NCBI RefSeq assembly: GCF_963921235.1
Contig: NC_086108.1
Coordinates: 18,538,001 to 18,602,000 of the forward strand
DNA from: Mobula hypostoma
Lineage: Eukaryota
Direction of reading: 5' to 3'
Length of the DNA stretch: 64,000 nucleotides
Part shown: positions 1-45,219 of the stretch, piece after piece
How positions within the stretch are numbered: the first letter of the stretch is position 1
Layout of the letters: every line of letters begins with the position of its first letter
Notes under the pieces: model-generated
Told to the model about the DNA's origin: nothing
The model's input: only the letters and a program-made list of their open reading frames with translations
Database searches by the model: none
Position numbers and translations under genes: made by a program

Positions 1-3000
1 TCCAGAGAATTGGCCTCCACTGCCTTCTGAATCAGCGTGTTCCACACCTCCACAACTCTTTGGGAGAAGAAGTTCCTCCTCAACTCTGTCCTAAATGACC
101 TACCCCTTATTCTTAAACCATGCTCTCTGGTACTGGACTCTCCTAGCATCTGGATCATATTTCCTGCCTCTATCTTGTCCAATCCCTTAATAATCTTATA
201 TGTCTCAATCAGATCCCCCCTCAATCTCCTTAATTCCAGCGTGTACAAGCCCAGTCTCTCTAACCTCTTTGTGTAAGACAGTCCGGACATCCCAGGAATT
301 AACCTAGTGAACCTACGCTGCACCTCCTCCACAGCCAGGATGTCCTTCCTTAAGCCTGGAGACCAAAACTGCACACAATACTCCAGGTGTGGTCTCACCA
401 GGGCCCTGTACAAATGCAAAAGGATTTCCTTGCTCTTGTACTCAATTCCCTTTGTAATAAAGGCCAACATTCCATTAGCCTTCTTCACTGCCTGTTGCAC
501 TTGCTCATTCACCTTCAGAGACTGATGAACAAGTACTCCTGTATCTCTTTGTATTTCTCCCTTACCTAACTCCACACCATTCAGATAATAATCTGCCTTC
601 CTGCTCTTGCTCCCAAAGTGAATAACCTCACACTTATTCACATTAAACGCCATCTGCCAAGTTTCTGCCCACTCACCCAGCCTATCCAAGTCACCTTGAA
701 TTCTCCTAACATCCTCATCACATGTCACACTGCCACCCAGCTTAGTATCATCAGCAAACTTGCTGATGTTATTCACAATGCCTTCCTCTAAATCATTGAC
801 ATAAATCGTAAACAGCTGGGGTCCCAATACGGAGCCCTGTGGCACCCCACTAGTCACCACCTGCCATTCCGAGAAACACCCATTCACTGCTACCCTTTGC
901 TTTCTATCTGCCAACCAGTTTTCTATCCATGTCAATATCCTCCCCCCAATGCCATGAGCTCTGATTTTACCCACCAATCTCCTATGTGGAACCTTATCGA
1001 ATGCCTTCTGAAAGTCAAGGTACACCACATCCACTGGATCTCCCGCGTCTATCTTCCTGGTTACATCCTCGAAAAACTCCAATAGATTAGTCAAGCATGA
1101 TTTGCTCTTGGTAAATCCATGCTGGCTCGGCCCAATCCTATCACTGCTATCAAGATATGCCGCTATTTCATCTTTAATAATGGACTCTAGCATCTTCCCC
1201 ACTACTGATGTTCTCTGTTTTCTCCCTCCCTCCTTTCTTAAAAAGTGGGATAACATTAGCCAGTTGCCAATCCTCAGGAACTGATCCTGAATCTAAGGAA
1301 CATTGGAAAATGATCACCAATGCATCCGCAATTTCCAAAGCCACCTCCTTTAGTACCCTAGGATGCAGACCATCTGGACCTGGGGATTTGTTAGCCTTCA
1401 GTTCCATCAGTCTACTCATCGCCGTTTCCTTCCTAATGTCAATCTGTTTCAGTTCCTCTGTTACCCTATGTCCTTGGCCCATCCATACATCTGGGAGATT
1501 GCTTGTGTCTTCCCTAGTGAAGTCAGATCCAAAGTACTTATTAAATTCGTCTGCCATTTCTCTGTTTCCCATAACAATTTCTCCCAATTCATTCTTCGAG
1601 GGCCCAACATTGTTCTTAACTATCTTCCTTCTCTTCACATACCTAAAAAAACTTTTGCTATCCTCCTTTATATTCCTAGCTAGCTTGTGTTCATACCTCA
1701 TTTTTTCTCCCCGTATTGCCTTTTTAGTTAAGTTCTGTTGCTCCTTAAAAATTTCCCAATCATCCGTCTTCCCACTCACCTTAACTCTGTTATATTTCTT
1801 CTTTTTTAATGCTATGCCATCTCTGACTTCCTTTGTCAAACACTGTGGCCACTTTTCCCCCTTTGAATCCTTCCTTCTCTGGGGTATAAACTGATTTTTC
1901 ACCTTGTGCATTATTCCCAAGAATACCTGCCATTGCTGTTCCACTGTCTTTTCTGCTAGGATATCTGACCAGTCAACTTTGGCCAGCTCCTCCCTCATGG
2001 CTCCATAGTCTCCTTTGTTCAACTGCAATACTGACACTTCTGATCTGCCCTTATCCCTCTCAACTTGCAGGTAAAAACTTATCATATTATGGTCACTACC
2101 TCCTAATGGCTCCTTTACTTCAAGATCATTTATCAAATCCTGTTCATTGCACAACACTAAATCCAGAATAGCCTTATCCCTGGTCGGCTCTCGTACAAGC
2201 TGCTCCAAAAGTGCATCCCGTAGGCACTCTACCAACTCCCTATCCTGGGGTCCAGTACCAACCTGATTTTCCCAGTTCACCTGCCTGTTGAAATCCCCCA
2301 TAACTACTGCGACATTTCCTTTGCCACATGCCATTGTTAACTCCCTATTCAACTTGCACCCAATATCCATGCTACTGTTTGGGGGCCTGTAGATAACACC
2401 TGTTAGGGTCTTTTTGCCCTTACTGTTCCTCAGTTCTATCCACACTGATTCCACTTCTCCTGATTCTATGTCCCCCCTTGCAAGGGACTGAATCTCGTTC
2501 CTCACCAACAGGGCCACCCCACCCCCTCTGCCCACCTTTCTGTCCCTTTGATAGCACGTATACCCTTGTACATTCAATTCCCAGATCTGATCCCCCTGCA
2601 GCCATGTCTCCGTTATCCCAACAACATCATAGTTACCCATTCACACCTGAGCTTCAAGCTCATCCGCTTTATTTCTGACACTTCGTGCATTCAGATATAG
2701 AATTTTTAACCCATTTCTCCTCTCTCTGTTTAAATCGCTGCCTATTGTGCATAACCCAGCTCCCCAAACTCTCAGCAGGCTATACGCCCCTTGAATTTTG
2801 TTGTCCTTCTTAAATTTACTTACTCTTTCTGCACACTTAACTCCATGCTCCGTCAGACCATCCCTCTGCACATGTATCCTCCTTATCATTCGTTCCGCCT
2901 CACCTTTCTCTACTTCACACTTAATATTCCGGAACCGTGTAGTCCCCACCTGTCCTTTATACTTCATCTCGCTATCCTCTCTCACATTCTGGATCCCTGC

Positions 3001-3163: not shown

Positions 3164-3459
3164 TATTGGAGAAGCCAAGAGCTAAGTGGTGTTCATTGAT
3201 ACAAATGGATAGGTACGTTGAACAGGAGCAAGAGTAGCCTAGTAAATCCTGCAATCTGCTTTGTTAGGCTGGTTGCCACGGATTGTTCGAGTTGCCACTC
3301 CCCCCATTTGCCTACCTCTCCACTTTCAGTCCTGGTGTATTTTATCAGTTTGAAACATCGACAGTTTCTCTCCCTCCGCAGATGCTGCCTGACCCACTGA
3401 ATTCCTCAAACAGGTTGTTTCTTGCATTCTCATCAAGTTGAGTTCATTGTCACATACGC

Positions 3460-4739: not shown

Positions 4740-6360
4740 AAGCAGAAGTGGAATATAAGAACAAACTACTGGGAAACGTAAAACAGACCAGGAAATTCAG
4801 TTAGTGTTAAATGTGATATCCTTACAGATGGGAGAGTTTGCAATGGGAAATCAAGATATGACAGATGAATTGCATAAATATTCTGCATCTGACACAAAAT
4901 CCCTCCCAGAAATAACAGGGACCAAGGATCTAAGTTCAAATAAGGAAATTAAATCTATCAATAAGAAAAAGAAACATGACTAACAACTGGACATGATGAT
5001 ACACATCAAGCAACACACATAAAAGTTGCTGGTGAACGCAGTAGGCCAGGCAGCATCTCTAGGAAGAGGTACAGTCGACATTTCGGGCCGAGACCCTTTG
5101 TCAGGACTAACTGAAAGAAGAGCTAGTAAGAGATTTGAAAGTGGGAGGGGGAGGGAGAGATCCAAAATGATAGGAGAAGACAGGAGGGGGAGGGATGGAG
5201 CCAAGAGCTGGACAGTTGATTGGCAAAATCGATTATGATGATATACGTTTGTACATCACAGCATTGTGAAAGAGACATTAGAGATGGTGAATGCTCTGCT
5301 ATCATCTTTCAAATCAGCATAGATTCCGGATTTGTCCCAGTGCAATATTACAAATGTAAGCCCACTATTAAATAAATGATGGGGACAGAAAGTTGAGCTC
5401 TAATAATCTTGTACCAGTAGAAAATGTTGGAATATATAATAAAGAATCTGATAACAAGATACTACAAAAATAATGATATATTGAACAGAGTTAACGTTGA
5501 TTTAAGAAGGGGAAATAAAACAATTGGAGTATTTAGGAGTATCTGGTAGAGCAGGTGAGAGGAGATCAGTGGATATGGTGTATGTGAACTTTCAAGAGCT
5601 TTTGATAATGCAAATTACAGGAGGTTGGTGAACCAGGTTGGAGAATACTGTATCTGAGCAATATACCAGCAAGGATTGAGAGTTGCTATATTAACAGGAA
5701 TAAGGAATGGACCCTGTTCAAATTGTGAAGAATGGGGTGCTACAGTAATCAGTGCTTGGAGTCCAATCTATAAGGGATGGAACCAAATGTAATATGTCCA
5801 TGTTTGCTGATGACACATGAGAATGTGAGTTTGCAGAGAGACTTCAAGAGAACACAACCAAGCTGAGTGACTTAGTAATAACATGGTGGGTGGAGACCAA
5901 TAGGAAATAGGGAAATACCAAGAATGTTTTAAACGGGGGATCGGAAAATGCAGTGTTGAAAGGAAGCTGGATGTCCTTGTACACAAGGCACTGAAAGTTA
6001 ACGTTCAGGTGGAGCGGGCAATTGGAAGGCAGATGGTGTTTTGATCTTCATTTCTATAGGATTTGAGAAAAGTGCAAAGATATCTTACTGTATTTAAAGT
6101 CAAACTTGAATTTATTGTCATATGCACAAGTTCATGACCGTAAAGGGGCAAATGAAAAATTTACTTGCAGCAGCATCACAGACACATGGCATAATATAAG
6201 CAACAGTCACAAGAAAAATATAAATTAAACATATCATTTCAGATTGATATATTTTTGAATGTAATTTAATGAAATTTGTTTAACTAGTTTATGTATATAA
6301 TTACACAGAACATTGGTGAGACTACACTTGAAGTATTGTGTACAGTTTTGGTGTGAAAAG
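4740..6360 (+). mobile_element. Old, heavily decayed CR1 ORF2 (RT region) with nested insertions
   Basis: Degenerate 'tttgctgatgacac' (FADD), 'gtattgtgtacagttttggt' (YCVQFW) and other CR1 RT blocks. Confidence 0.65.
5010..5225 (-). mobile_element. Penelope-like 3' terminal module with degenerate hammerhead motif
   Basis: Minus strand agtcctgacaaagggtctcggcccgaaatgtcgact followed by gatgctgcctggcctactgcgttcaccagca; same module as at 21560-21745. Confidence 0.75.
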
Positions 6361-9109: not shown

Positions 9110-10835
9110 GAAGAAAAACCTGAACACTAAGTAAATCATAAACACAGGGAATAGCTGGAAGGTGACAGGTGAAGCCAGGAGGGTGGAGGAGGTCATGGGC
9201 TGGAGAAGAAGGAATCTAATAAGAGAGGAGAGGAGAAAGAGAAGGAAAAAGGAACCCAGAGGAAGGTAATAGGTAGGTGAGAAGAAGTAAGGGGCGAGAG
9301 AAGGGAATAGAAGAAGAGAGAGGGAGGGATTTTTTTCCCTGGAAAGAGAAACTGATATTCATGTCATCAGGTTGGAAGCTACCAAGATGGAATATAAGGT
9401 GTTCCACCCTGAGGGTAGCCTCATCATGGCACAAGAGGAGGCCATGGATCCTCATGTCAGAATGGAAATCAGAATTAAAATGATAGGCCACCGGGAAGAT
9501 CCACTTTTGACGGACGGAGCAGAGGTGCTCGACGAAGCTGTCCCCCAAATTATGACAAGTCTCAGCAATATTGATGAGGCTGCATCGGGAGCACTGGGCA
9601 CAACAGACAACCTCAGCAGATTTACAGGTGAAGTGTTGCCTCACCTGGAAGGACTGTCTGGGGCTCTGAACAGAGGTGAGGGAGAAGATGTATGGGCAGG
9701 TGCAACACTTAGGCCACTTGCAAGGATAAATGCCAGGAGAAAGATTAGTGGGGAGGGCAGAATGAACAAGGGAATCACGGATGGAGTAATTCTTGTAGAA
9801 AGCCCAGGGTGGGGGGAATGGTAAAGATATGTTTGGTGGTAGGATCCCTTTGGAGATGGTGGAAGATGCAGAGAATGATGTGTTGGATGCAGAGGTGGTA
9901 GTTAAGGGTGAGAGGAACTCTATCACTGTTAAGGCAGGGGAAAGATGTGGTGAGCACAGACGTTCAAGAAATGGAGGAGATATTAGCATCAATAGGGGAG
10001 GAAGGAAAACCCCTTTCTCAGAAGAAGGAGGATGGCTCTGATGTTCTGGAAAGGAAAACTGAATCCTAGGAACAGATGTGACAGAGACAAAGGAAATGAG
10101 AAATGTGAATAGCATGTTTACAGGAGATAGGGTGGGAAAAGGCATAATCTATATAACTGTGGGAATCTATAGTTTTATAAAAGATGTCAGTCAACATTTT
10201 GTCTTCAAAGATGCAGCCAGAGAGATTAAAAAGGGGGAGGAGGGTATCAGAAATGGACTAAGTGAATTTAGGGGCAGGGTGAGTCGTTGAAGGCAAATTT
10301 GATTAAATTGATTAGCTCATGAAGCAGCACCAATGCAGTTATCAATGTAGCGGAGAAAGAATTGGGGAACATTACCAGGGAAGGCTTGGAACATGGACTG
10401 TTCTAAGTAGCCAACGAAGAGGCAAACATAGCTGAGCCCCATGCAGGTGGCCATGGCTACCCCTCGAGTTTGGAGAAAGTGGGAGGAGCTGAAGGAGAAA
10501 TTGCTGAGGGTGAGGACCAGTTCTGCCAGATGGAGGAAGATAATGGTGGAGGGAAACTAGTTGGTTGTTTTATTGAGAAAGAAGCGGAAAGCTTTAAGAC
10601 CTTCTTAATGGGTAATAGAAATGTATGGGGACTGAACATCCATGGTGAAAATGTGGTGGTAAGGGCCAGGGAACTGTAAGTCAGTGAGGAGATCAAGACC
10701 ATGAGAAGTGTCATGGATGTAGGTGGGAAGGGACTGAACCAAGGGGGATAGAATGGAACTAAGGTATGAGGACATGAGTTCAGGGGGCAGGAGCAGGCGG
10801 AGACAATGGGACTATCCAGACCATCAGGTTGGTAA
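9110..10835 (-). mobile_element. Penelope-like retroelement relic (RT plus GIY-YIG endonuclease)
   Basis: Minus strand reads GVAMATCMGLSY...LRYIDNCIG (PLE RT motifs, about 10320-10470). ORF 9216-10145 has CKWPKCCTCP and HFTCKSAEVVCCAQCSRCSLINIAET...FVEHL (degenerate GIY-YIG). Confidence 0.87.
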
Positions 10836-14737: not shown

Positions 14738-16955
14738 TTCTTTCTTTCTTTTCAAATCTTTTTATTGTTATATTATACAGAAAAAATAACGAGTACATTG
14801 AAATAACAACTCTTACAATGTTTCAAAAAAGACATTATCTTAAAGATTGAAAAAAAATTTTGTGATAACAAAAAAAACCTACTAAGCAGAAAAGTGAGAA
14901 AAAAAAAAGAACCAGTTAGGTGTACAACCACGCAGTCATGCGTCATACAAAAAGCTTCTAAAAATAAACATCAAACTGCCAGCAAGAAAAGAAAATATAC
15001 TAAAAAATTTACAATTAGATCGTGGAAAAATTACATCAGTTAGCTCAAATGATAATAATGAGCAAATGAGCCCCATCTTTTTTCAAAATCAAATAAAGGT
15101 TCAAAGGTTCGACTTCTAATTTTCTCCAAACTAAGACTTAGCATCACTTGAGAGAACCATTGTGACAAAGTGGGAGCTGATGTATCCTTCCACTTCAACA
15201 AAATGGCCCTCCTAGCTATCAATGTAACAAATGCAATAACATGTTGGTCAGACACAGAAATACCATGAATATTTTGAGGAATTATAGAAACCGTAGAAAC
15301 CATAGAAACTACAGCACAGGCCTTTTGGCCCTTCTTGGCTGTGCCGAACCATTTTCTGCCTAGTCCCACTGACCTGCACACGGACCATATCCCTCCATAC
15401 ACCTCCCATCCATGTATCTGTACAATTTATTCTTAAATGTTTAAAAAGAACCCGCATTTACCACCTTGTCTGGCAGCTCATTCCATACTCCCACCAGTCT
15501 CTGTGTGAAGAAGCTCCCCCAATGTTCCCTTTAAACTTTTCCCTCCTCACCCTTAACCCATGACCTCTGGTTTTTTTCTCCCCTTGCCTCAGTCGAAAAA
15601 GCCTGCTTGCATTCACTCTATCTATACCCATCATAATTTTATATACCTCTATCAAATCTCCCCTCATTCTTCTACGCTCCAGGGAATAAAGTCCTAACCT
15701 ATTCAACCTTTCTCTGTAACTGAGTTTCTCAAGTCCTGGCAACATTCTTGTAAACCTTCTCTGCACTCTTTCAACCTTATTTATATCCTTCCTGTAATTT
15801 GGTGACCAAAACTGAACACAATACTCCAGATTCGGTCTCACCAATGCCTTATACAACCTCATCATAATATTCCAGCTCTTATACTCAATACTTCGATTAA
15901 TAAAGGCCAATGTACCAAAAGCTCTCTTTACAACCCTATCTACCTGTGATGCCACTTTTAGGGAATTTTGTATCTGTATTCCCAGATCCCTCTGTTCCAC
16001 TGCACTCCTCAGTGCCTTACCATTAACCCTGTATGTTCTACCTTGGTTTGTCCTTCCAACGTGCAATACCTCACACTTGTCTGCATTAAACTCCATCTGC
16101 CATTTTTCAGCCCATTTTTCCAGCTGGTCCAAGTCCCTCTGCAGGCTCTGAAAACCTTCCTCGCTGTCTACTACACCTCCAATCTTTGTATCATCAGCAA
16201 ATTTGCTGATCCAATTTACCACATTATCATCCAGATCATTGATATAGATGACAAATAACAATGGACCCAGCAGTGATCCCTGTGGCACACCACTAGTCAC
16301 AGGCCTCCACTCGGAGAAGCAATTCTCTACTACCATTCTTTGGCTTCTTCCATTGAGCCAATGTCTGATCCAATTTACCACCTCTCCATGTATACCTAGC
16401 GACTGAATTTTCCTAACTAACCTCCCATGTGAAAAAGCACAGTTAATTTATTAGGTTGTAGATTAATTTTAAGTGCTTCAGAAATTGTTGAAAAAACCGA
16501 CTTCCAGAACTGTTCCAATATAGAACAAGACCAAAACATATGTGTCAGTGTAGCTATCTCAGTTTCACATCTATCACAATGACTATCAATATTAGAAAAG
16601 ATTTTAGAAAGTGTCTCCTTCGTCAAACAATAACGATGTACAATTTTATATTGAATCAATGAATGGCTAGCTCAAATTGAAGAAGAGTTAACCAACTTCA
16701 AAATCTGCATCCAATCCTCGGTCATAAAAGTCAAATTAAGTTCCTTTTCCCAATCCTGTTTAATCTTAGATAAAGGATGCTTATCCCATTGTAATAATAA
16801 ATTATAAATTCTTCCAATAGAACCCTTGATCAAAAGATTCATACTCATAATAGTATCTAACAGGTCAGCCTCCAAAATGTAAGGAAAATTACTTAAATAG
16901 TTTTGTAAAAAATGTCTAACTTGAAGGTATTGCTGGAAGTGTGAATATGGAAGTT
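14738..16955 (-). mobile_element. L1-clade LINE 3' part (ORF2 C-terminus and 3' UTR), split by a CR1 insertion
   Basis: ORF 16417-16659 has the CCHC knuckle CDRCETEIATLTHMFWSC; ORF 15040-15402 has ARRAILLKWK...LSLEKIR; 16672-16875 has KIKQDWEKEL; A-rich 3' end with AATAAA near 14745-14770. Confidence 0.85.
15285..16429 (-). mobile_element. 5'-truncated CR1 (RT C-half and tail) nested in the L1
   Basis: ORF 15458-16381: [35 protein letters not shown]-type tail repeats at 15285-15310. Confidence 0.93.
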
Positions 16956-20229: not shown

Positions 20230-20485
20230 AAAGGTTGGGGTGTGGATAGTGTGGAGAACTGTCAGAGGTTACAGCAGGACATTGATAGGATGCAAAACTG
20301 GGCTGAGAAGTGGCAGATGGAGTTCAACCCAGATAAGTGTAAGGTGGTTCATTTTGGTAGGTAGGTCAAATATGATGACAGAGTATAGTATTAATGGTAA
20401 GACTCTTGGCAGTGTGGAGGATCAGAGGGATCTTGGGGTCCGAGTCCATAGGACACTCAAAGCTGCTGTGCAGGTTGACTCTGTG
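20230..20485 (+). mobile_element. CR1 RT fragment
   Basis: Encodes ...LQQDIDRMQNWAEKWQMEFNPDKC...QRDLGVRVHRTLK. Confidence 0.8.
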
Positions 20486-21745
20486 GTTTCCCCTCTGCTG
20501 TTACATCTCAAATGTCCTCTTTCTTTAAGGATCGTGGTTTCCCTTCTGCTGTCCCATTCCCTATTCCCAGTTCCTCCTTCTCCGCTGCATCTGCTCCAAG
20601 GATGAGGTTTTCCATTCCAGGACATCTCAAATGTCCTCTTTCTTTAAGGATCGTGGTTTCCCTCCTGCTGTCGTCAATGATGCCCTCACCTGCATCTCCT
20701 CCATTTCCCGCACTTCGGCTCTCACCCTATTCTCCGGCCACCACATCAGGGACAGAGTTCCCTTTGTCCTCACCTACCACCCCACCAGCCTCTGGATCCA
20801 GCACATTATCCTCCGCAACTTCCGCCACCTTCACCAGGACCCCACCACTAAGCACATCTTTCCCTCTCCACGCCTGTCCGCTTTCCGTAGGGATCCCCGC
20901 GACTCCCTGATCCACACGTCCCTCCCCACGGATCTCCCACCTGGCACTTATCCCTGTAAGCGCAAGTGCTAAACCTGTCCCTACATCTCCTTTCTTGCCA
21001 CCATTCAGGGCCCCAAACAGTCCTTCCAAGTGAGGCAACACTTCACTTGTGAGTCTGTTGGGGTCATCTATTGCATGCGGTGCTCCCGGTGCGGCCTCCT
21101 TTACATCGGTGAAATCCAACGCAGATTAGGGGACCGCTTCGTCGAGCACCTCCGCTCCATCCGCCAAAACAAACAGGATCTCCCAGTGGCCACCCACTTC
21201 AACTCTGCTTCCCACTCCCATTCAGATATGTCCATACATGGCCTCCTCTACTGCCATGATGAGGCTAAACTCAGGTTGGAGGAGCAACACCTCATATACC
21301 GTCTAGGTAGTCCTCAGCCCCTTGGTATGAAAAAGAATTCTCCAACTTCCGGTAATTCCCTCCCCTTCCCTTCCCCTATCCCTATGTCATTCTGCCCCCT
21401 CCCCCAGCTGTCTATCACCTCCCACATGGTTCCACCTCCTTCTACTACCCGTTGTGCTTTCCCCTATTCTTTCTTCACCTTACCTGCCTGTCACCTCCCT
21501 GCTTCCCCTCCCCCACCCCTTTATCTTTCCCCTTACTGGTTTTTCACCTGGAACCTACCAGCCTTCTCCTTCCCACCCTCCCCCCACTTTCTTTATAGGC
21601 CTCTGCCCCTTCCCTCTACAGTCCTGACGAAGGGTTCCAGCCTGAAACGTCGACCGATCTTTTCCACGGATGCTACCCAACCTGCTGAGTTCCTCCAGCA
21701 TGTTGTGAGTGTTGCTTTGACCCCAGCATCTGCAGATTATTTTGT
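20486..21745 (+). mobile_element. Penelope-like element 3' half: GIY-YIG endonuclease plus 3' module with hammerhead
   Basis: ORF 21030-21785: FTCESVGVIYCMRCSRCGLLYIGEIQRRLGDRFVEHL (VIY...YIG); PFVLTYHP upstream; pyrimidine-rich 3' UTR. Confidence 0.9.
21619..21656 (+). ncRNA. Minimal type I hammerhead ribozyme motif (intact core)
   Basis: GTC-CTGACGA-AGG-GTTCCAG-CCT-GAAA-CGTC-GAC: helix I GTC/GAC, CUGAnGA box, helix II, GAAA box, loop-less palindromic helix III, predicted cleavage after GUC at 21651. Confidence 0.75.
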
Positions 21746-22529
21746 GTTTGGATATTTCCTGTTCTTGGGGATGGGACATACCTAGGCAATGTTCCACATT
21801 GCTGGGCAACTGCCTGTGTTGTAACCATAATGAAACAGCTTGGCTAAAGGCCCAGCTCTTTTTGGAAAGCAGATACTATAGCTGGGATGTTTTCTGGTCA
21901 CATAGCCTTTACTGTATGCATCAATTCTCAGCCATTTCCTGCCATGAATCACATTGGCTGGAGATTGTTGTCCATGATAATGGGGATCTCAGGAGGAAGC
22001 CAGGATGGGTCACCCAATCAACATTTCTGGTTGAGTAAGTCTCCAAGTATTCAGACTTTATCTTTAACACTCATGTGTGGATTCCTCCCATCACTGAGGA
22101 CGGAGATATTTCCAGAGCCTCATCCTTCCATTAGAAATCTGATTGTCTACCATCATTCATGACCCGATATGCTGGGATTGAAATGCTTCAGCCTAATCCT
22201 TGCTCAGTTTATAGAATACTGGTTATACTTGATAACACTTGGTTCTGTTTCCTTCAGTGGACTGGTACCTTGCTGTTGTTCGGTATGTCGGATACTGCTC
22301 CCACATGCCCTGTTGCACTCATCATTGAACAGTCTTTGGTTTGAGAGTAAAAGTGGAATGATACATATTCATGTTTCTTCTGCTGTTGATGGTTCACTAT
22401 GCACTGTGGATGCCCAGTTTTAGCTGTCGGATCTATTTTGAATCTGTCCCATTGAGCACATTTGTAGTATCATACATGTTGTGCTCATCCCACCTTAATC
22501 CTATTCATTATTCTCCCACATTCCCATTA

Positions 22530-26030: not shown

Positions 26031-28583
26031 TAGACCTCTTACACAATCCTAGGCATCAGGCATTCCGTTCATTAAACTACCCACCCCTGAGACAGAATTC
26101 AGGCTGTGATTTACACCCTCAGTCCTTGATAAGGTTCACTCCACTCTGTAGTGGCCATTACAGAGACTTAGCGAGCACCAGGGCAGGAATGGATTCTCAA
26201 CATTCCTGGATTTCAGTGCTTTAAAAGGGATGGCGGGGGGAAGGGGAGGAGGGGTGGCATTACTGTTCAGGAATACTATTACAGCTACAGAAAGGGTGTG
26301 TAATGTAGCAGGATCCTCTTTTGAGTCAGTGTGGGTAGAAGTCAGGAACCGGAAGGGAGCAGTTACTCTATTGGGAGTATTCTATAGGCCCCCTGTTATC
26401 AGCAGAGATACCAAAGAGCAGATTGGGAGGCAGATTTTGGAAAGGTGCAAAAATAACAGGGTTGTTATCATGGGTGACTTTAACTTCCCTAATATTGATT
26501 GGTACCTGATTAGTTCCAATGGCTTAGACAGGGCAAAGTTGATTAAGTGTGTCCAGGATGGATTCTTGTCACAATATGTTGACAGGCCGACTAGGGGGAA
26601 TGCCATACTAGATCCAGTATTAGGTAATGAACCGGGTCAGTTCACAGATCTCTCAGTGGGTGAGCATCTGGGGGACAGTGACCACTGCTCCCTGGCCTTT
26701 AACATTATCATGGAAAAGGATAGCATCAGAGAAGACAGGAAAATTTTTAATTGGGGAAGGGCAAATTATGAGGCTATGTGGCTAGAACCTGCGGTTGTGA
26801 ATTGGGATGATGTTTTTGCAGGGAAATGTACTATGGACATGTGGTCAATGTTTAGTGATCTCTTGCTGGATATTAGGGATAAATTTGTCCTGGTGAGGAA
26901 GATAAAGAATGGTAGGGTGAAGGAACCATGGGTGACAAGTGAGGCAGAAAATCTAGTCAGGTGGAAGAAGGCAGCATACATGAGGTTTAGGAAGCAAGGA
27001 ACAGATGGGTCTATTGAGGAATACAGGGAAGCAAGAAAGGAGCTTAAGAAGGGGCTGAGAAGAGCAGGAAGGGGGCATGAGAAGGCCTTGGCGAGTAGGG
27101 TAAAGGAAAAAACCCAAGGCATTCTTCAATTATGTCAAGAACAAAAGGATGACAGGAGTGAAGGTAGAACCGATTAGAGGTAAAGGTGGGAAAAAGTGCC
27201 TGGAGGCTGTGGAAGTGATCGAGGTCCTCAATGAATACTTCTCTTTGGTATTCACCAATGAGAGGGAACTTGATGATGGTGAGGACAATCTGAGTGAGGT
27301 TGATGTTCTGGAGCATTTTGATATTAAGGGAGAGGAGGTGTTGGAGTTGTTGAAATACATTAGGATGTATAAGTCCCTGGGGCCTGACGGAATATGCCCA
27401 GGCTGTTCCACGAGGTGAGGGAAGACATTGCTGAGCCTCTGGCTAGGATCTTCATGTCCTCGTTGTCCACGGGAATGGTACCAGAGAATTGGAGGGAGGT
27501 GAATGTTGTCCCCTTGTTCAAAAAAGGTAGTAGGGATAGTCCAGGTAGTTATAGATCAGTGAGCCTTACGTCTGTGGTGTGAAAGCTGTTGGAAAAGATT
27601 CTGAGAGATGGGATCTATGGGCATTTACAGAATAATGGTTTGATCAGGGACAGTCAGCATAGCTTTGTGAAGGGGAGATCGTGTCTAACAAGCCTGATAG
27701 AGTTCTTTGAGGAGGTAACCAGGCATATAGCTGAGGGTAGTACAGTAGATGTAATCTACACGTATTTTAGCAAGGCACTTGACAAGGTTTCACTCGGTAG
27801 GCTTATTCAGAAAGTCAGAATCATGGGATCCAGGGAGGTTTGGTCAGGTGGATTCAGAATTGGCTAGCCTGCAGAAAGGAGAGGGTCATGGTGGAGGGAA
27901 TACATTGGATTGGAGGGTTATGACTAGTGGTGTCCCACAAGGTTCATTCTGGGACCTCTGCTTTTTGTGATTTTTAATAACGACCTGTATGTGGTGGTAG
28001 AAGGGGAGGTTGACAAGTTTGCAGACGACACAAAGGTTGGTGGTGTTGTGGATAGTGCAGAGGATTGTCAAAGATTGCAGAAAAACATTGATAGGAAGCA
28101 GAAGTGGGCTGAGAAGTGGCAGATGGAGTTCAACCCGGAGAAGTGTGAGGTGGTACACTTTGGAAGGACTAACTCCAAGGCAGAGTACAAAGTAAATGGC
28201 AGGATACTTGGTAGTGTGGAGGAGCAGAGGGATCTGGGGGTACATGTCCATAGATCCCTGGAAGTTGCCTCACAGGTGGATAGGGTAGTTAAGAAAGCTT
28301 ATGGGGTGTTAGCTTTCGTAAGTCGAGGGATAGAGTTTAAGAGTCGCGAGGTAATGATGCAGCTCTATAAAACTCTGGTTAGGCCACACTTGGAGTACTG
28401 TGTCCAGTTCTGGTCGCATCACTATAGGAAGGACGTGGAAGCATTGGAAAGGGTACAGAGGAGATTTACCAGGATGCTGCCTGGTTTAGAGAGTATGAAT
28501 TATGATCAGAGATTAAGGGAGCTAGGACTTTACTCTTTGGAGAGAAGGAAGATGAGAGGAGACATGATAGAACATAGAACACA

Positions 28584-28710
28584 GATTAGATTAGATTCAA
28601 CTTTGTTGTCATTGTGCCGAGTACAGATACGAAGCCAATGAAATGCATTTAGCATCTGACCAGAAATGCAAAGAATAGTGTTATTTACAAAATAACTGCG
28701 AATAAAAAAA
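28584..28710 (-). mobile_element. Short Rex1/Babar-like 3' tail insertion
   Basis: Reverse complement closely matches about 53120-53243, ending in aatctaatct repeats. Confidence 0.75.
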
Positions 28711-29772: not shown

Positions 29773-31479
29773 TAATCCATACTCTCTAAACCAGGCAGCA
29801 TCCTGGTAAATCTCCTCTGTACCCTTTCCACATCCTTCCTATAGTGAGGCGACCAGAACTGGACACAGTACTCCAAGTGTGGCCTAACCAGAGTTTTGTA
29901 GAGCTGCATCATTACCTCATGACTCTTAAGCTCTATCCTTCGACTTATGAAAGCTAACCCCCATAAACTTTCTTAACTACCCTATCTACCTGTGAGGCAA
30001 CTTTCAGGGATCTGAGGACATGTACCCCCAGATCCCTCTGCTCCTCCACACTACCAAGTATCCTGCCATTTACTTTGTACTCTGCCTTGGAGTTTGTCCT
30101 TCCAAAGTGTACCACCTCACACTTCTCTGGGTTGAACTCCATCTGCCACTTCTCAGCCCACTTCTGCAACCTATCAATGTCTCTCTGCAATCTTCAACTA
30201 TCCTCTACACTTTCCAGAACACCACCAACCTTTGTGTCGTCTGCAAACTTGCCTTCTACCCCCACATCCAGGTCGTCAATAAAAATCACAAAAAGTAGAG
30301 GTCCCAGAACCGATGCTTGTGGGACACCACTAGTCACAACCCTCCAGTCCAAATGTACTCCCTCCACCATGACCAGACTTTCCTGGATCCCATGCCTTCT
30401 GACTTTCTGAATAAGCCTACCGTGTGAACCCTTGTCAAATGCCTTGCTAAAATACGTGTAGATTACATCCACTGTACTACCCTCAGCTATATGCCTGGTC
30501 ACCTCCTCAAAGAACTCTATCAGGCTTGTTAGACACGATCTCCCCTTCACAAAGCCATGCTGACTGTCCCTGATCAGACCATTATTCTCTAAATGCCCAG
30601 AGATCCTACCTCTAAGAATCTTTTCCAACAGCTTTCCCACCACAGACTTAAGGCTCACTGGTCTATAATTACCCGGACTATCCCTACTACCTTTTTTGAA
30701 CAAGGGGACAACATTCGCCTCCCTCCAGTCCTCCGGTACCATTCCCATGGACAATGAGGACATAAAGATCCTAGCCAGATGCTCAGCAATCTCTTCCCTC
30801 GCCTCGTGAAGCAGCCTGGGGAATATTCCGTCAGGCCCTGAGGACTTATCCGTCCTAATTTATTTTAACAACTCCAACACCTCCTCTCCCTTAATATCAA
30901 CATGCTCCAGAACATCAACCTCACTCATATTGTCCTCACTGTCATTAAGTTCCCTCTCATTGGTGAATACCAAAGAGAAGTATTCATTGAGGACCTCGCT
31001 CACTTCCACAGCCTCCAGGCACATCTTCCCACCTTTACCTCTCATTGGTCCTACCTTCACTCCTGTCATCCTTTGTCATGTTAGAGTTATACAAGATATT
31101 AAGACGAATAGATAGAGTGGACAGGCAGCACCTCTTCCCCAGGGCACCACTGTTCAGTACAAGAGGACATGGCTTTAAGGTAAGGGGTGGGAAGTTCAAG
31201 GGGGATATTAGACGAAGGTTTTTTACTCAGAGAGTGGTTGGTGCATGGAATACACTGCCTGAGTCAGTGGTGGAGGCAGATACACTAGTGAAATTTAAGA
31301 GACTACAAGACAGGTATATGGAGGAATTTAAGGTGGGGGTTATATGGATGTAGGGTTTAAGGGTTGGGACAACATTGTGGGCCAAAGGGCCTGTACTGTG
31401 CTGTACTATTCTATGTTCTATGTTCTATGTCCACAATTTCCGCATGACCCATTGCCAAAGCAGTTATCAATAGCTGAGT

Positions 31480-34400
31480 TTGTCACCATGTGTGAGTACA
31501 ATGAAAAATTTGCTTGGAGAAGCGTATCAGGTATGTAGATACGGACAGCAAAAAGAATAGAAATTATACAAGATATTGAAGGAAAAAAGACAAGGTGTTA
31601 GTGCAAAATGAAAACACAATCAGAGACAAGTTGATGATAGTGCAAGAGGTCTGTGCTGCTCCATTGCTAAGATTGGATTAGAGTTGTTTAAGTCAGTTGA
31701 AGAACCTAATGGTTGTAGCAGAGTACCTGTTCCTGAACCTGCTGGTGTGTAACACCAGGCCTCCGTACATTCCTGAACCTGCTGGTGTGTAACACCAGGC
31801 CTCCGTACATTCCTGATCCTGCTGGTGTGTAACACCAGGCTTCTGTACATTCCTGAACCTGCTGGTGTGTAACACCAGGCTTCTGTACATTCCTGAACTT
31901 GCTGGTGTGTAACACCAGGCCTCCGTACATTCCTGAACTTGCTGGTGTGTAACACCAGGCTTCTGTACATTCCTGATCCTGCTGGTGTGTAACACCAGGC
32001 TTCTGTACATTCCTGAACCTGCTGGTGTGTAGCACCAGGGCTCCGTACATTCCTGAACTTGCTGGTGTGTAACACCAGGCTTCTGTACATTCCTGAACCT
32101 GCTGGTGTGTAACACCAGGCCTCCGTACATTCCTGAACCTGCTGGTGTGTAACACCAGGCCTCCGTACATTCCTGATCCTGCTGGTGTGTAACACCAGGC
32201 TTCTGTACATTCCTGAACCTGCTGGTGTGTAACACCAGGCCTCCGTACATTCCTGAACTTGCTGGTGTGTAACACCAGGCCTCCGTACATTCCTGAACCT
32301 GCTGGTGTGTAACACCAGGCTTCTGTACATTCCTGAACCTGCTGGTGTGTAACACCAGGCCTCCGTACATTCCTGAACCTGCTGGTGTGTAACACCAGGC
32401 CTCCGTACATTCCTGAACCTGCTGGTGTGTAACACCAGGCTTCTGTACATTCCTGAACCTGCTGGTGTGTAACACCAGGCCTCCGTACATTCCTGATCCT
32501 GCTAGTGTGTAACACCAGGCTTCTGTACATTCCTGAACCTGCTGGTGTGTAACACCAGGCTTCTGTACATTCCTGAACTTGCTGGTGTGTAACACCAGGC
32601 CTCCGTACATTCCTGAACCTGCTGGTGTGTAACACCAGGCTTCTGTACATTCCTGAACCTGCTGGTGTGTAACACCAGGCTTCTGTACATTCCTGAACCT
32701 GCTGGTGTGTAACACCAGGCTTCTGTACATTCCTGAACCTGCTGGTGTGTAACACCAGGCCTCTGTACATTCCTGAACCTGCTGGTGTGTAACACCAGGC
32801 TTCTGTACATTCCTGAACCTGCTGGTGTGTAACACCAGGCTTCTGTACATTCCTGAACTTGCTGGTGTGTAACACCAGGCCTCCGTACATTCCTGAACCT
32901 GCTGGTGTGTAACACCAGGCTTCTGTACATTCCTGAACCTGCTGGTGTGTAACACCAGGCTTCTGTACATTCCTGAACCTGCTGGTGTGTAACACCAGGC
33001 TTCTGTACATTCCTGAACCTGCTGGTGTGTAACACCAGGCCTCCGTACATTCCTGAACTTGCTGGTGTGTAACACCAGGCTTCTGTACATTCCTGAACCT
33101 GCTGGTGTGTAACACCAGGCTTCTGTACATTCCTGAACCTGCTGGTGTGTAACACCAGGCTTCTGTACATTCCTGAACCTGCTGGTGTGTAACACCAGGC
33201 TTCTGTACATTCCTGAACCTGCTGGTGTGTAACACCAGGCCTCCGTACATTCCTGAACCTGCTGGTGTGTAACACCAGGCTTCTGTACATTCCTGAACCT
33301 GCTGGTGTGTAACACCAGGCTTCTGTACATTCCTGAACCTGCTGGTGTGTAACACCAGGCTTCTGTACATTCCTGAACCTGCTGGTGTGTAACACCAGGC
33401 CTCCGTACATTCCTGAACCTGCTGGTGTGTAACACCAGGCCTCCGTACATTCCTGAACCTGCTGGTGTGTAACACCAGGCTTCTGTACATTCCTGAACCT
33501 GCTGGTGTGTAACACCAGGCTTCTGTACATTCCTGAACCTGCTGGTGTGTAACACCAGGCTTCTGTACATTCCTGAACCTGCTGGTGTGTAACACCAGGC
33601 TTCTGTACATTCCTGAACCTGCTGGTGTGTAACACCAGGCTTCTGTACATTCCTGAACCTGCTGGTGTGTAACACCAGGCTTCTGTACATTCCTGAACCT
33701 GCTGGTGTGTAACACCAGGCCTCCGTACATTCCTGAACCTGCTGGTGTGTAACACCAGGCTTCTGTACATTCCTGAACCTGCTGGTGTGTAACACCAGGC
33801 CTCCGTACATTCCTGAACCTGCTGGTGTGTAACACCAGGCTTCTGTACATTCCTGAACCTGCTGGTGTGTAACACCAGGCCTCCGTACATTCCTGAACCT
33901 GCTGGTGTGTAACACCAGGCCTCCGTACATTCCTGAACCTGCTGGTGTGTAACACCAGGCCTCCGTACATTCCTGAACCTGCTGGTGTGTAACACCAGGC
34001 CTCCGTACATTCCTGAACCTGCTGGTGTGTAACACCAGGCTTCTGTACATTCCTGAACCTGCTGGTGTGTAACACCAGGCTTCTGTACATTCCTGAACCT
34101 GCTGGTGTGTAACACCAGGCCTCCGTACATTCCTGAACCTGCTGGTGTGTAACACCAGGCTTCTGTACATTCCTGAACCTGCTGGTGTGTAACACCAGGC
34201 CTCCGTACATTCCTGAACCTGCTGGTGTGTAACACCAGGCTTCTGTACATTCCTGAACCTGCTGGTGTGTAACACCAGGCCTCCGTACATTCCTGAACCT
34301 GCTGGTGTGTAACACCAGGCCTCCGTACATTCCTGAACCTGCTGGTGTGTAACACCAGGCCTCCGTACATTCCTGAACCTGCTGGTGTGTAACACCAGGC

Positions 34401-35280
34401 CTCCGTACATTCCTGAACCTGCTGGTGTGTAACACCAGGCTTCTGTACATTCCTGAACCTGCTGGTGTGTAACACCAGGCTTCTGTACATTCCTGAACCT
34501 GCTGGTGTGTAACACCAGGCCTCCGTACATTCCTGAACCTGCTGGTGTGTAACACCAGGCTTCTGTACATTCCTGAACCTGCTGGTGTGTAACACCAGGC
34601 CTCTGTACATTCCTGAACCTGCTGGTGTGTAACACCAGGCTTCTGTACATTCCTGAACCTGCTGGTGTGTAACACCAGGCCTCCGTACATTCCTGAACCT
34701 GCTGGTGTGTAACACCAGGCTTCTGTACATTCCTGAACCTGCTGGTGTGTAACACCAGGCTTCTGTACATTCCTGAACCTGCTGGTGTGTAACACCAGGC
34801 TTCTGTACATTCCTGAACCTGCTGGTGTGTAACACCAGGCCTCCGTACATTCCTGAACCTGCTGGTGTGTAACACCAGGCTTCTGTACATTCCTGAACCT
34901 GCTGGTGTGTAACACCAGGCTTCTGTACATTCCTGAACCTGCTGGTGTGTAACACCAGGCTTCTGTACATTCCTGAACCTGCTGGTGTGTAACACAAAGC
35001 TTCTGTATGTTCTGAGTGATAGTACCAGTGAGAAGATGATGTGACCTGGATAGTAGGGATCTTTGATGATAGCTGCTGCCTTCGCAAGATAGTTTCAATA
35101 GTGGGGAAAGGCTGTAGCCGTGATGGACCAAGCTGTGTCCACTTCCCTCTGTCGCCTCCTGCGCTCTTTTGCATAGCTTTCCATGAGTGCATGCTTCTTA
35201 GTGTTGGAGCAGGCTTGATGCAGAACAACCAGCCCACAATATTTGAAGTTTAGCATGTTACTGTCACTATCTGAATATCA
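31480..35280 (-). mobile_element. Decayed Rex1/Babar-like LINE 3' part hosting the 40-bp array
   Basis: Upstream flank resembles LPTIE...IIKDPYYPGH; downstream flank reads YRSLVLHTSRFRNRYSATTIRFFN, matching the family C-terminus seen at 52618-52872 (FRSLKTHTARFGNSFFPTEIRLLN). Confidence 0.72.
31731..35010. repeat. 40-bp tandem satellite/minisatellite, 81 full units plus 1 diverged terminal unit
   Basis: Unit TCCTGAACCTGCTGGTGTGTAACACCAGGC(T/C)TC(T/C)GTACAT; phase conserved throughout with no indels. Confidence 0.99.
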
Positions 35281-35859: not shown

Positions 35860-36450
35860 CCCAGCTTAAATCCTCCTCCCTGTTCCCACATTAACGTGTC
35901 TGTCCTCGGCCTCCTCCACTGCCAGGATGAGGCTAAACAGAAACTAGAGGAACATATTCCGCCAGGATAGTCTGCAGCCTGACGGTATGAATATATAATT
36001 CTCCAACCTCGTAATCTGCTCTTCCTCTGTATCTGTTCTCTCTCTCTCCCACATTCACCCCAACCTCTTTCACCCTGCTTTTCTACCCACTCCAGTTGGA
36101 CATCACTCACATACTCCTCCCACTGGTAAATTGGTTTATTATTGTCACATGTGGAAAACTTAAATTCTTATAGCATCCATTTCATCACCTCAGTACACTG
36201 AGGTGTTACAAAGGAAAAGCAATAACAGAATGCAGGATAAAATGTTACAGTTACAGAGAAAGTGCAGCGCAGATAGACAAGAATGTGCAAGGATGTGAGT
36301 TCGAGTCCACCTTGAAACTAGTTCCTTCCACCACACCCACTGTTCCCATCTGCCTTGCTACCTCTCCCTCACTTGGTTCCATGCCCCACCTTCCTCTCCA
36401 ATCAGATTTCACCATCTGCAGCCCTTCGTCACCTCCCAGCCTCTGTCCTG
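35860..36450 (+). mobile_element. Penelope-like 3' fragment (with nested LINE tail); module resumes at about 40695-40910
   Basis: Encodes SVLGLLHCQDEAKQKLEEH (compare SIHGLLYCHDEAKLRLEEQH at 21230-21290); degenerate hammerhead module at 40818-40905. Confidence 0.65.
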
Positions 36451-36617
36451 ACAGGGTTCTGAGTTGGATGATCAGCCATGATCGTACTGAATGGCGGTGC
36501 AGGCTCGAAGGGCCGAATGGCCTACTCCTGCACCTATTTTCTATGTTTCATAGAACATAGAACATAGAATAGTACAGCACAGCACAGGCCCTTTGGCCCA
36601 CAATGTTGTGCCAACCC

Positions 36618-39341
36618 TCAAACCCTACCTCCCATATAAGCCCCCACCTTAAATTCCTCCATATACCTGTCTAGTAGTCTCTTAAACTTCACTAGTGTAT
36701 CTGCCTCCACCACTGACTCAAGCAGTGCATTCCACGCATCAACCACTCTCTGAGTAAAAAACCTTCCTCTAATATCCCCCTTGAACTTCCCACCCCTTAC
36801 CTTAAAGCCATGTCCTCTTGTACTGAGCAGTGGTGCCCTGGGGAAGAGGCGCTGGCTATCCACTCTAACTATTCCTCTTATTATCTTGTACACCTCTATC
36901 ATGTCTCCTCTCATCCTCCTTCTCTCCAAAGAGTAAAGCCCTAGCTCCCTTAATCTCTGATCATAATGCATACTTTCTAAACCAGGCAGCATCCTGGTAA
37001 ATCTCCTCTGTACCCTTTCCAATGCTTCCACATCCTTCCTATAGTGAGGTGACCAGAACTGGACACAGTACTCCAAGTGTGGCCTAACCAGAGTCTTATA
37101 GAGCTGCATCATTACATTGCGACTCTTAAACTCTATCCCTCGACTTATGAAAGCTAACACCCCATAAGCTTTCTTAACTACCCTATCCACCTGTGAGGCA
37201 ACTTTCAGGGATCTGTGGACATGTACCTCGAGATCCCTCTGCTCCTCCACACTACCAAGTATCCTGCCATTTACTTTGTACTCTGCCTTGGAGTTTGTCT
37301 TTCCAAAGTGTACCACCTCACACTTCTCCAGGTTGAACTCCATCTGCCACTTCTCAGCCCACTTCTGCATCCTATCGATGTCTCTCTGCAATCTTTGACA
37401 ATCCTCTACACTATCTACAACACCACCAACCTTTGTGTCGTCTGCAAACTTGCCAACCCACCCTTCTACCCCCACATCCAGGTCGTTAATAAAAATCACG
37501 AAAAGTAGAGGTCCCAGAACAGATACTTGTGGGACACCACTAGTCACAATCCTCCAATCTGAATGTACTTTCTCCACCACCACCCTCTGCCTTCTGCAGG
37601 CAAGCCAATTCTGAATCCACCTGGCCAAACTTCCGTGGATCCCATGCCTTCTAACTTTCTGAATAAGCCTACCATGTGGAACCTTGTCAAATGCCTTACT
37701 AAAATCCACATAGATCACATCCACTGCACTACCCTCATCTATATGCCTGGTCACCTCCTCAAAGAACTCTATCAGGCTTGTTAGACACGATCTGCCCTTC
37801 ACAAAGCCATGCAGACTGTCCCTGATCAGACTATGATTCTCTAAATGTCTATAGATCCTATCTCTAAGAATCTTTACCAACAGCTTTCCCACCACAGACG
37901 TAAGGCTCACTGGTCTATAATTACCCGGACTATCCCTACTACCTTTTTTGAACAAGGGGACAACATTCGCCTCCCTCCAATCCTCCAGTACCATTCCCGT
38001 GGACAACGAGGACATAAAGATCCTAGCCAGAGGCTCAGCAATCTCTTCTCTCGCCTCGTGGAGCAGCCTGGGGAATATTCCGTCAGGTCCCGGGGACTTA
38101 CCTGTCTTAATGTATTTTAACAACTCCAACACCTCCTCTCCCTTAATATCAACATGCTCCAAAACATCAACCTCACTCATATCGTCCTCACCATCATCAA
38201 GTTCCCTCTCATTGGTGAATACCGAAGAGAAGTATTCATTGAAGTATTCAGTATTCAGCTCCTCTCTTGCTTCCCTATATTCCTCAATAGACCCATCTGA
38301 TCCTTGCTTCCTAAACCTCAAATATGCTGCCTTCTTCCACCTTACTAGATTTTCCACCTCACTTGTCACCCATGGTTCCTTCACCCTACCATTCTTTGTC
38401 TTCCTCACCGGGACAAATTTATCCCTTACATCCCACAAGAGATCTCTAAACGTCGACCGCATGTCCATAGTACATTTCCCTGCAAAAACATCATCCCAAT
38501 TCACACCTGCAAGTTCTAGCCTTTTAGCCTCATAATTTGCCTTTCCCCAATTAAAAATTTTCCTGTCCTCTCTGATTCTATCCTTTTCCATGATAATGCT
38601 AAAGGCCAGGGAGCGGTGGTCACTGTCCCCCAGATGCTCACCCACTGAGAGATCTGTGACCTGACCCGGTTCATTACCTAGTACTAGATCTAGTATGGCA
38701 TTCCCCCTGGTCGGCCTGTCCACATACTGTGACAGGAATCCATCCTGGACACACATAACAAATTCTGCCCCATCTAAACCCTTGGAACTAATCAGGTGCC
38801 AATCAATATTAGGGAAGTTAAAGTCACCCATGATTACAACCCTGTTATTTTTGCACTTTTCCAAAATCTGCCTCCCAATCTGCTCCTCTGTATCTCTGCT
38901 GCTACCAGGGAGCCTATAGAATACCCCCAGTAGAGTAACTGCTACCTTCCTATTCCTGACTTCCACCCATATTGACTCAAAAGAGGATCCTGCTACATTA
39001 CCCACCCTTTCTGTAGCTGTAATAGTATCCCTGACCAGTAATGCCACCCTTCCTCCCCTTTTTCCACCCTCTCTATCCCTCTTAAAGCACTGAAATCCAG
39101 GAATATTGAGAATCCATTCCTGCCCTGGTGCCAGCCAAGTCTCTGTAATGGCCAGTACATCATAATTCCATGTATGTATCCAAGCTCTCAATTCATCACC
39201 TTTGTTCCTGATGCTTCTAGCATTGAGGTACACACATTTCCGCCCTTCGATATTACTGTCTTTACACTGTTTATTCTGCTTCTCTTTCCTCAAAGCCTCT
39301 CTGTATGTTAGATCTGGCTTTACTCCATGCGCTTCTTTCAC
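36618..39341 (-). CDS. CR1 ORF2: APE endonuclease plus reverse transcriptase, 907 aa, open but with an in-frame internal deletion and a PQG-to-PQV change
   Basis: YLNARS, ITETW, GDFN, LDLV, SDH (EN); NYRPVSLTS, YVDFSKAFD, VPQVSVLGP, KFADD (RT); the linker present in the 26150 copy (KKGLRRA...) is missing at about 38250. Confidence 0.8.
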   Translation of the reverse strand: MKEAHGVKPDLTYREALRKEKQNKQCKDSNIEGRKCVYLNARSIRNKGDELRAWIHTWNYDVLAITETWLAPGQEWILNIPGFQCFKRDREGGKRGGRVALLVRDTITATERVGNVAGSSFESIWVEVRNRKVAVTLLGVFYRLPGSSRDTEEQIGRQILEKCKNNRVVIMGDFNFPNIDWHLISSKGLDGAEFVMCVQDGFLSQYVDRPTRGNAILDLVLGNEPGQVTDLSVGEHLGDSDHRSLAFSIIMEKDRIREDRKIFNWGKANYEAKRLELAGVNWDDVFAGKCTMDMRSTFRDLLWDVRDKFVPVRKTKNGRVKEPWVTSEVENLVRWKKAAYLRFRKQGSDGSIEEYREAREELNTEYFNEYFSSVFTNERELDDGEDDMSEVDVLEHVDIKGEEVLELLKYIKTGKSPGPDGIFPRLLHEAREEIAEPLARIFMSSLSTGMVLEDWREANVVPLFKKGSRDSPGNYRPVSLTSVVGKLLVKILRDRIYRHLENHSLIRDSLHGFVKGRSCLTSLIEFFEEVTRHIDEGSAVDVIYVDFSKAFDKVPHGRLIQKVRRHGIHGSLARWIQNWLACRRQRVVVEKVHSDWRIVTSGVPQVSVLGPLLFVIFINDLDVGVEGWVGKFADDTKVGGVVDSVEDCQRLQRDIDRMQKWAEKWQMEFNLEKCEVVHFGKTNSKAEYKVNGRILGSVEEQRDLEVHVHRSLKVASQVDRVVKKAYGVLAFISRGIEFKSRNVMMQLYKTLVRPHLEYCVQFWSPHYRKDVEALERVQRRFTRMLPGLESMHYDQRLRELGLYSLERRRMRGDMIEVYKIIRGIVRVDSQRLFPRAPLLSTRGHGFKVRGGKFKGDIRGRFFTQRVVDAWNALLESVVEADTLVKFKRLLDRYMEEFKVGAYMGGRV

Positions 39342-39376
39342 TGCTCTATCGCTCTGGGTCCCATCCCCCTCGCAAA

Positions 39377-45050: not shown

Positions 45051-45219
45051 GGGTCAGAGACACTGTGAACAAGCAGGGAGATGTCCTGGGTCAGAGACAC
45101 TGTGAACAAAGCAGGGAGATGCCCTGATTCAGAGACACTGTGAACAAAGCAGGGAGATGTCCTGGGTCAGAGACACTGTGAACAAGCAGGGAGATGTCCT
45201 GGGTCAGAGACACTGTGAA
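45051..45219. repeat. 37-38-bp minisatellite, about 4.5 copies
   Basis: GGGTCAGAGACACTGTGAACAA(A)GCAGGGAGATGTCCT repeated. Confidence 0.93.

Follow-up and report, generated by a model that had tools for sequence, protein, structure and literature searches.

A minimal hammerhead at the 3' pseudo-LTR end of a disrupted Penelope-like element from a ray, likely an inactive relic

The minimal hammerheads (min-HHRs) of Penelope-like elements (PLEs) were described in 2014 as a class that extends from cnidarians to reptiles (Cervera and De la Pena, 2014; PMC4209133). As set out in that paper, the class has two marks, an unpaired base after A9 and a G10.1-C11.1 pair. In the assays reported there, the tested monomer showed no cleavage, while dimers and trimers cut weakly, and the accompanying model has two motifs swapping their helix I strands while their palindromes join into a helix III of 4 bp. 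A later review (PMC6765202) shares this dimer view. Among vertebrate elements carrying related motifs, one of nine Xenopus dimer elements was reported to cut (bioRxiv 10.64898/2026.07.22.740005). The hammerhead of an anole PLE is described as cutting only with the element's protein, as dispensable for insertion in vitro, and as leaving no RNA-seq ends at its site in the data presented (PMC11167929). The question behind the motif is whether PLE min-hammerheads ever cut in cells and, if they do, what they depend on: a partner motif, the protein of the element, or the two together. Here we describe a ray family that is added to the 2014 class, by way of a copy that is itself a worn relic. A genome with a very large family of this kind is a good place to ask the question, although a young full-length element with two pseudo-LTRs would suit better than the present locus.

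The motif lies in a stretch of 64,000 nucleotides, referred to below as the window, and all positions are counted from its first letter. It occupies 21621-21654 on the forward strand and reads GTC CTGACGA AGGGTTCCAGCCT GAAA CGTC GAC, with GTC at 21621-23, CTGACGA at 21624-30, AGGGTTCCAGCCT at 21631-43, GAAA at 21644-47, CGTC at 21648-51 and GAC at 21652-54. All invariant core letters are present (11/11), as is the NUH triplet (GUC). The first core box, C3 U4 G5 A6 C7 G8 A9, was read directly from the sequence at 21624..21630 (+). The second, comprising G12 A13 A14 A15.1 with the ACGU palindrome, U16.1 and C17, was likewise read at 21644..21651 (+), where the numbering follows the descriptor in Fig. 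S7 of PMC4209133. The palindromic 15.1-16.1 segment is ACGU at 21647-21650 and has no loop 3. Since C17 is 21651, the cut is predicted between 21651 and 21652.

We searched both strands with a re-implementation of the RNAmotif min-HHR descriptor of Cervera and De la Pena (PMC4209133, Fig. S7), which allows a helix I of 3-7 bp, CUGANGA plus an optional base, a helix II of 3-7 bp and GAAANNUH, with G·U pairs permitted. The match at 21624 was the sole one in the 64-kb window, and none of 500 dinucleotide-preserving shuffles of the window produced a match. Rfam returned no hammerhead hit, either at the gathering score over the whole window or at E<=10 over 21400-21900, and the absence of helix III is the likely reason for this miss. 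The 61-nt fold was no more stable than its shuffles (z=+1.22; 176/200 shuffles fold as well), which would be unsurprising for a motif that lacks helix III. Together with the PLE context described below, the descriptor match and the empty shuffles identify the motif as a PLE-borne minimal hammerhead of type I, that is, a min-HHR in the sense of the 2014 paper. The original prediction had made this assignment from the letters, and its account of the motif sequence, the complete core, the loop-less palindromic helix III and the separation of 'about 300 bp' from the GIY-YIG coding sequence (289 nt when counted from the tblastn edge at 21332) was borne out. Its cut after C21651, with no activity expected of the monomer, agrees with the assays described in PMC4209133. 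Of the two kinds of model search that it had proposed, the RNAmotif descriptor located one site and the Rfam hammerhead models none.

The host of the motif is a 5'-truncated, stop-broken PLE at 20483..21750 (+), delimited by tblastn, a repeat family edge and contig depth, with both ends approximate. It runs from the end of the RT region through a linker and a GIY-YIG endonuclease to the 3' pseudo-LTR, and the RT core is absent. The 5' edge was taken from the start of the repeat family at 20483, and the 3' edge from the fall in placed contig depth from 238,868 (21746-53) to 751 (21754-61) in one run. No target-site duplication was evident at the element ends. Near the 5' end, 20503..20553 (+) is a 51-nt duplicate of 20622-20672 (98% identical) beside a ragged junction. 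This junction (20483-20672) contains the 51-nt duplication and a shorter third copy, and by eye it abuts a CR1-like RT fragment, with a few bases in common where the two meet.

A protein search returned 15 homologues at E<=0.001 among 50 candidates, the best of which were 83% and 80% identical and came from Mobula hypostoma and Hypanus sabinus (NCBI names), which makes a ray the likely source of the window. Searching back with the best homologue by tblastn gave 75% identity over 20556-21332, with an in-frame stop. The endonuclease remnant, at 21060..21332 (+), was recognised by Pfam, homologues and alignment and has the arrangement VIY-CxxCxxC-x3-YIG, with R, H and E. Both cysteines between the GIY-YIG boxes and the downstream histidines are present in translation and alignment, while the conserved N near the end of the domain reads K, at which point the homology stops. 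The Pfam match (PF01541; residues 30-104 of the frame from 20973; E=0.0055) scored 17.4 bits, below the cut-off of 22.6. In the translations, a zinc-finger-like CX3CxxC linker lies at 20955..20978 (+), where an in-frame stop (20970-20972) breaks it; the best homologue has CX4CxxC in its linker. A CX2-5CxxC linker is given as the mark of Neptune elements, with a reduced form in Nematis (PMC8557442), and by its linker motif and the cysteines between the boxes the present element would fit the Neptune type. It shares with the Neptune EN+ PLEs of that paper the C-terminal GIY-YIG domain, the cysteines between the boxes and the CX2-5CxxC linker. It differs from them in the missing RT core, and its clade assignment rests on a linker motif of which Nematis has a reduced form. 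CpG observed/expected was 0.53 in the coding part of the element, compared with 0.23 in the window.

Within this element the hammerhead sits on the sense strand of the terminal repeat of a high-copy family, 289 nt past the last aligned GIY-YIG codon and on the same strand as it. The remainder of the pseudo-LTR beyond the cut site, about 100 nt at 21657..21750 (+), was delimited from copy alignments. The final ~34 nt of it (21717-21750) resemble the optional tail of 30-40 nt known from PLEs (PMC11167929, PMC8557442). For the copies at 5109 and 45890 the alignment ends at ~21717, and for the one at 62144 it goes on to ~21750. Two classes of 3' end, ~34 nt apart, were observed (21717-21750 versus 5008, 45791 and 62281), as expected for an optional PLE tail arising from two RT start sites in the account of PMC11167929.

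The features of the published min-HHRs recur at this locus: type I, CUGANGA, a bulged base, helix II, GAAA-NN-UH, a loop-less palindrome and a short helix I, found as a single 3' motif in a 5'-truncated element of a high-copy dispersed family (PMC4209133). The CGUC ending seen here also occurs in the Takifugu, cichlid, lamprey and Xenopus(1) rows of Fig. S3 of that paper, and cartilaginous fish are absent from its 56 rows. Helix II has 4 bp here versus 7-8 in the S. mansoni families described there, and unlike the min-HHR consensus this copy closes helix II with a G·U pair and has a mismatch in helix I. The small PLE hammerhead variants of Lunse, Weinberg and Breaker (2016), as presented in PMC6765202, have the same kind of palindromic, extremely short stem III and are likewise read under a dimer model. 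Anole Poseidon PAc (PMC11167929) resembles the present element in carrying a hammerhead in a PLE pseudo-LTR, in insertions that end past the cut site and in the optional 30-40 nt tail. As described, however, PAc is a Poseidon element with assayed, protein-assisted cleavage, whereas the element here is of Neptune type by its linker, and broken. The vertebrate non-LTR retrozymes (bioRxiv 10.64898/2026.07.22.740005) also contain a type I motif derived from PLE pseudo-LTRs, and one chondrichthyan genome is among those in which they are described. They are tandem non-coding units with at least two hammerheads, whereas here one motif is joined to coding remnants. Classification of the locus as a non-LTR retrozyme was rejected, the class needing at least two motifs and the site having no tandem array and one complete motif in 64 kb. 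Our literature search, whose coverage excluded most subscription journals, found no report of this ray family; the supplements of the retrozyme preprint may list the families of its one chondrichthyan.

To place the motif among its relatives we aligned copies of the 3' end found in the window by nhmmer. There were seven at E<1e-5, the query included; the alignment did not take in four weaker matches (E>1). The six other relics lie at 3320-3418 (+), 5007-5109 (-), 40807-40918 (+), 44479-44568 (+), 45790-45890 (-) and 62144-62270 (+). Each of them carries 1-4 core changes, and the core is unchanged in the query alone (1/7). The letters that follow helix I vary among the relics, suggesting several subfamilies. 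Covariation had little power among these seven decayed copies: no pair was changed on both sides, and 445/500 shuffles scored as high. Pairwise identity among the window copies was 0.65 in the hammerhead versus 0.71 in the downstream block, the motif being no better kept than that block. Three more coding remnants of the same PLE family were located by homology search at 9303-10454 (-), 59037-59333 (+) and 35884-36019 (+), and nhmmer found no hammerhead-bearing 3' end beside them. By eye, a faint trace of the 5' half of the motif may lie near 36440-36475.

Outside the window, contigs from four public runs were placed at 80% likeness, numbering 35,917 and 29,639 for DNA runs from two organisms, figures that are not copy numbers. 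The 4,081 and 2,265 contigs placed from two further runs, which are only guessed to be RNA, are not evidence of expression. None of the contig pieces listed spans the whole stretch, and a pattern search for outside copies gave no matches in viral contigs, metagenome contigs or prokaryote genomes. Letter counts in the placed contigs are biased towards the query. At a 5% threshold the 11 invariant core positions had no alternative letter, and the nine positions that did vary within 21619-21656 were N7, three letters of loop II, 11.1, 15.2, 16.2, 17 and 21655. Because copies of one parent look alike anyway, the conserved core in the contigs shows the letters of the parent and not selection.

Two of these variable positions bear on the stems. 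At 11.1/G12 the window copies read CG (n=2), TG (n=4) or CA (n=1). T at 21643 (11.1) is thus common, being found in 4/7 window copies and in 57-59% of DNA-run depth, with C making up 41% and 43% of contig depth in the two DNA runs. In loose-end rows, which are biased away from the query, C stood at 11.1 in 8/8 of the displayed rows covering this site (24 were displayed, another 682 omitted). The pattern of CG, TG and CA, together with C in the reads, makes it likely that U11.1 arose by CpG decay, and it could also be a subfamily letter. At 21655, T was found in 5/6 of the other window copies and in 11/11 of the shown loose-end rows that span the site. The DNA runs gave T in 31% and C in 69% of depth, a count biased to the query, and C21655 could be the letter of a C-bearing subfamily.

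We next consider the stems of this copy. Helix I is built from a 5' strand at 21619..21623 (+) and a 3' strand at 21652..21656 (+), which pair as 21623-21652, 21622-21653, 21621-21654 and 21619-21656. It amounts to 3 bp, an A21620·C21655 mismatch where most window copies have T at the second position, and a lone C21619-G21656 pair. The predicted pair probabilities were 0.55-0.59, and 0.20 for the outer pair. Folding left A21631 (21631..21631, +) unpaired between positions 9 and 10.1, a feature named in PMC4209133, and placed helix II at 21632..21643 (+), with 4 bp (G·U, G-C, G-C, U·G; probabilities 0.96, 0.98, 0.98 and 0.88) around a 4-nt loop. The closing pair is G10.1·U11.1. In the 48-nt fold, G21632·U21643 with A21631 bulged had a probability of 0.96, versus 0.02 for A21631-U21643. 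The latter register, which the original prediction had drawn, was rejected as the main fold; by our own count it has one precedent among the 56 rows of Fig. S3 (PMC4209133). The seven-copy alignment did not separate the two registers (85.7% of cells paired over 4 pairs versus 76.2% over 3).

With respect to the two class marks, the extra base after A9 is found in 54/56 rows of Fig. S3 by our own count, and the pair at 10.1:11.1 is present here as G·U and not as the consensus G-C. Across the same 56 rows we counted 43 G-C, 8 G·U and 5 A-U or U-A pairs at this position, and the G·U rows include S. mansoni family-1, the family assayed in PMC4209133. The G·U pair is not disqualifying, because 8/56 rows have it. 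The core of this copy is intact, but its stems are weakened in both helices. The description of the ribozyme as intact therefore held for the core and not for helix II, which closes with G·U, or for helix I, which is interrupted after 3 bp.

A different fold is predicted to prevail in the monomer. Given C at position 7, G5-G8 is complementary to C15.2-C17, and the monomer is predicted as a rod that hides the cut site, with G5-G8 paired to C15.2-C17 at probabilities of 0.98-1.0 in the 48-nt fold. In the 151- and 261-nt folds the hammerhead helices stood at <=0.005. The same rod was predicted when the family letters were used. It may serve as a lock inherent to the motif, or it may simply follow from the palindrome.

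No core-intact partner was found in the 64-kb window, and the nearest related motifs, 16.5 kb and 19 kb off, are both core-broken. The active homodimer of this copy was predicted at -8.3 kcal/mol, versus -18.8 kcal/mol for two monomers. With the family letters at 11.1 and 21655 the corresponding values were -22.1 and -31.2 kcal/mol, so that wear at these two positions lowers dimer pairing by ~14 kcal/mol. When this copy was paired with a partner bearing the family letters, the heterodimer reached -16.4 kcal/mol, versus -26.6 kcal/mol for two folded monomers. The gap between dimer and monomers barely differs between this copy (10.5 kcal/mol) and the family-lettered one (9.1 kcal/mol). The nearest-neighbour model, which ignores core and protein contacts, therefore does not single out this copy. 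The original prediction had allowed self-cleavage as a dimer or in trans; for this copy that is unlikely, given that the window contains no core-intact partner, that the homodimer is predicted at -8.3 kcal/mol where the family letters give -22.1 kcal/mol, and that published dimers cut weakly (PMC4209133) or in one of nine cases (bioRxiv 10.64898/2026.07.22.740005).

From the published work we picture the active parent as follows. Its two pseudo-LTR hammerheads would exchange helix I strands and share a helix III of 4 bp, and its tandem transcript would be cut slowly or with help from protein. A cut after C21651 would accordingly require a second hammerhead paired through the ACGU palindrome, and likely the protein of the element as well. 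For the present copy, folding predicts a monomer that closes into a rod burying the cut site and an active dimer that would be weakened by the mismatch in helix I and by G10.1·U11.1. The template RNA of this insertion probably escaped cleavage at the hammerhead, since the inserted sequence runs on for ~100 nt past C21651, and such a likely uncut template agrees with the anole result as described in PMC11167929. We are confident in reading the locus as the min-hammerhead of a broken PLE's 3' pseudo-LTR, with a predicted partner-dependent cut after C21651, and in taking this lone worn copy to be likely inactive.

This reading has to be weighed against others that grant the copy more activity, or less. 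It might be functional in cells, pairing in trans with family RNA once it is transcribed and either cutting or being cut; its helix I 5' strand fits the family 3' strand, which would make it a better enzyme half than substrate half. The core being intact in this copy alone among the seven in the window speaks for such a role, as do the very large family, the natural precedent for the G·U closure (8/56) and the gain from -8.3 kcal/mol in the homodimer to -16.4 kcal/mol in the heterodimer; a partner could moreover lie beyond the 64 kb examined. However, that heterodimer is still 10 kcal/mol above two folded monomers (-26.6 kcal/mol), and in longer context folding predicts no hammerhead helices. 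Pfam found no host exon among the 93 frames given to it, which leaves no known host transcript at this site, and an intact core suits a younger copy just as well as it suits selection, in line with the CpG ratios (0.53 versus 0.23). Even tandem dimers are weak in the assays of PMC4209133 and bioRxiv 10.64898/2026.07.22.740005. We consider function of this copy in cells improbable. A more speculative extension holds that solo hammerheads, locked as monomers, are opened in trans through ACGU by RNAs of the family. PLE protein and RNA could then trigger cuts in unrelated transcripts across the ray genome, to which this copy would mostly contribute the enzyme half. To this extension we give very little credence.

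The opposite departure is that the motif was kept for a role other than cutting, even in the parent, be it as a binding or folding element for the PLE protein, as part of a pseudo-LTR promoter, or as a passenger. Insertions that extend ~65-100 nt past the cut site are compatible with this, as are the anole hammerhead mutants that left in vitro insertion unaffected (PMC11167929) and the lack of covariation among the seven window copies. Other functions are left open in PMC4209133, and PLE clades are described as thriving without hammerheads, which may parasitise PLEs (PMC8557442). Yet cleavage is documented for the anole motif, where it hinges on both C3 and G8, with the double mutant giving partial rescue (PMC11167929), and all catalytic letters are kept in the family reads, which a purely structural role would not need. 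A non-cutting role thus seems to us a slim prospect, about as doubtful as the cutting of unrelated transcripts. Least credible of all is a chance hammerhead look-alike in repeat DNA. It would suit the missing Rfam hit and the ordinary stability of the 61-nt fold (z=+1.22; 176/200 shuffles as stable), but no shuffled window out of 500 contained a descriptor match, and the motif matches the published class in its position, strand, bulge, palindrome and helix sizes, leaving a chance origin hardly any plausibility.

The remainder of the window is rich in repeats. Of ~111 frames at least 95 aa long, 93 were scanned with Pfam, overlapping ones being set aside. No host gene domain was recognised in these 93, whose hits were retroelement domains and repeat-driven artefacts. 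A sigma-70 promoter scan gave one weak site and was set aside as irrelevant to a vertebrate. LINE endonuclease/RT remnants were recognised by Pfam at 3-2640 (-), 15458-16447 (-), 26152-28641 (+), 30197-30859 (-), 42559-42978 (-), 56039-56344 (-) and 60086-61033 (+). A well-preserved LINE, which we take to be of CR1/L2 type, lies at 36621-40006 (-); its 927-aa frame encodes endonuclease and RT domains and follows another frame in which a GDSL esterase-like domain was recognised. Across a 40-bp tandem array at 31730-35007 (~82 copies, 96% match) the minus strand has long frames free of stops. The Pfam hits in these frames are artefacts of the repeat, in which no stretch passes alone. A 38-bp minisatellite of 4.5 copies (94% match) occupies 45050-45219.
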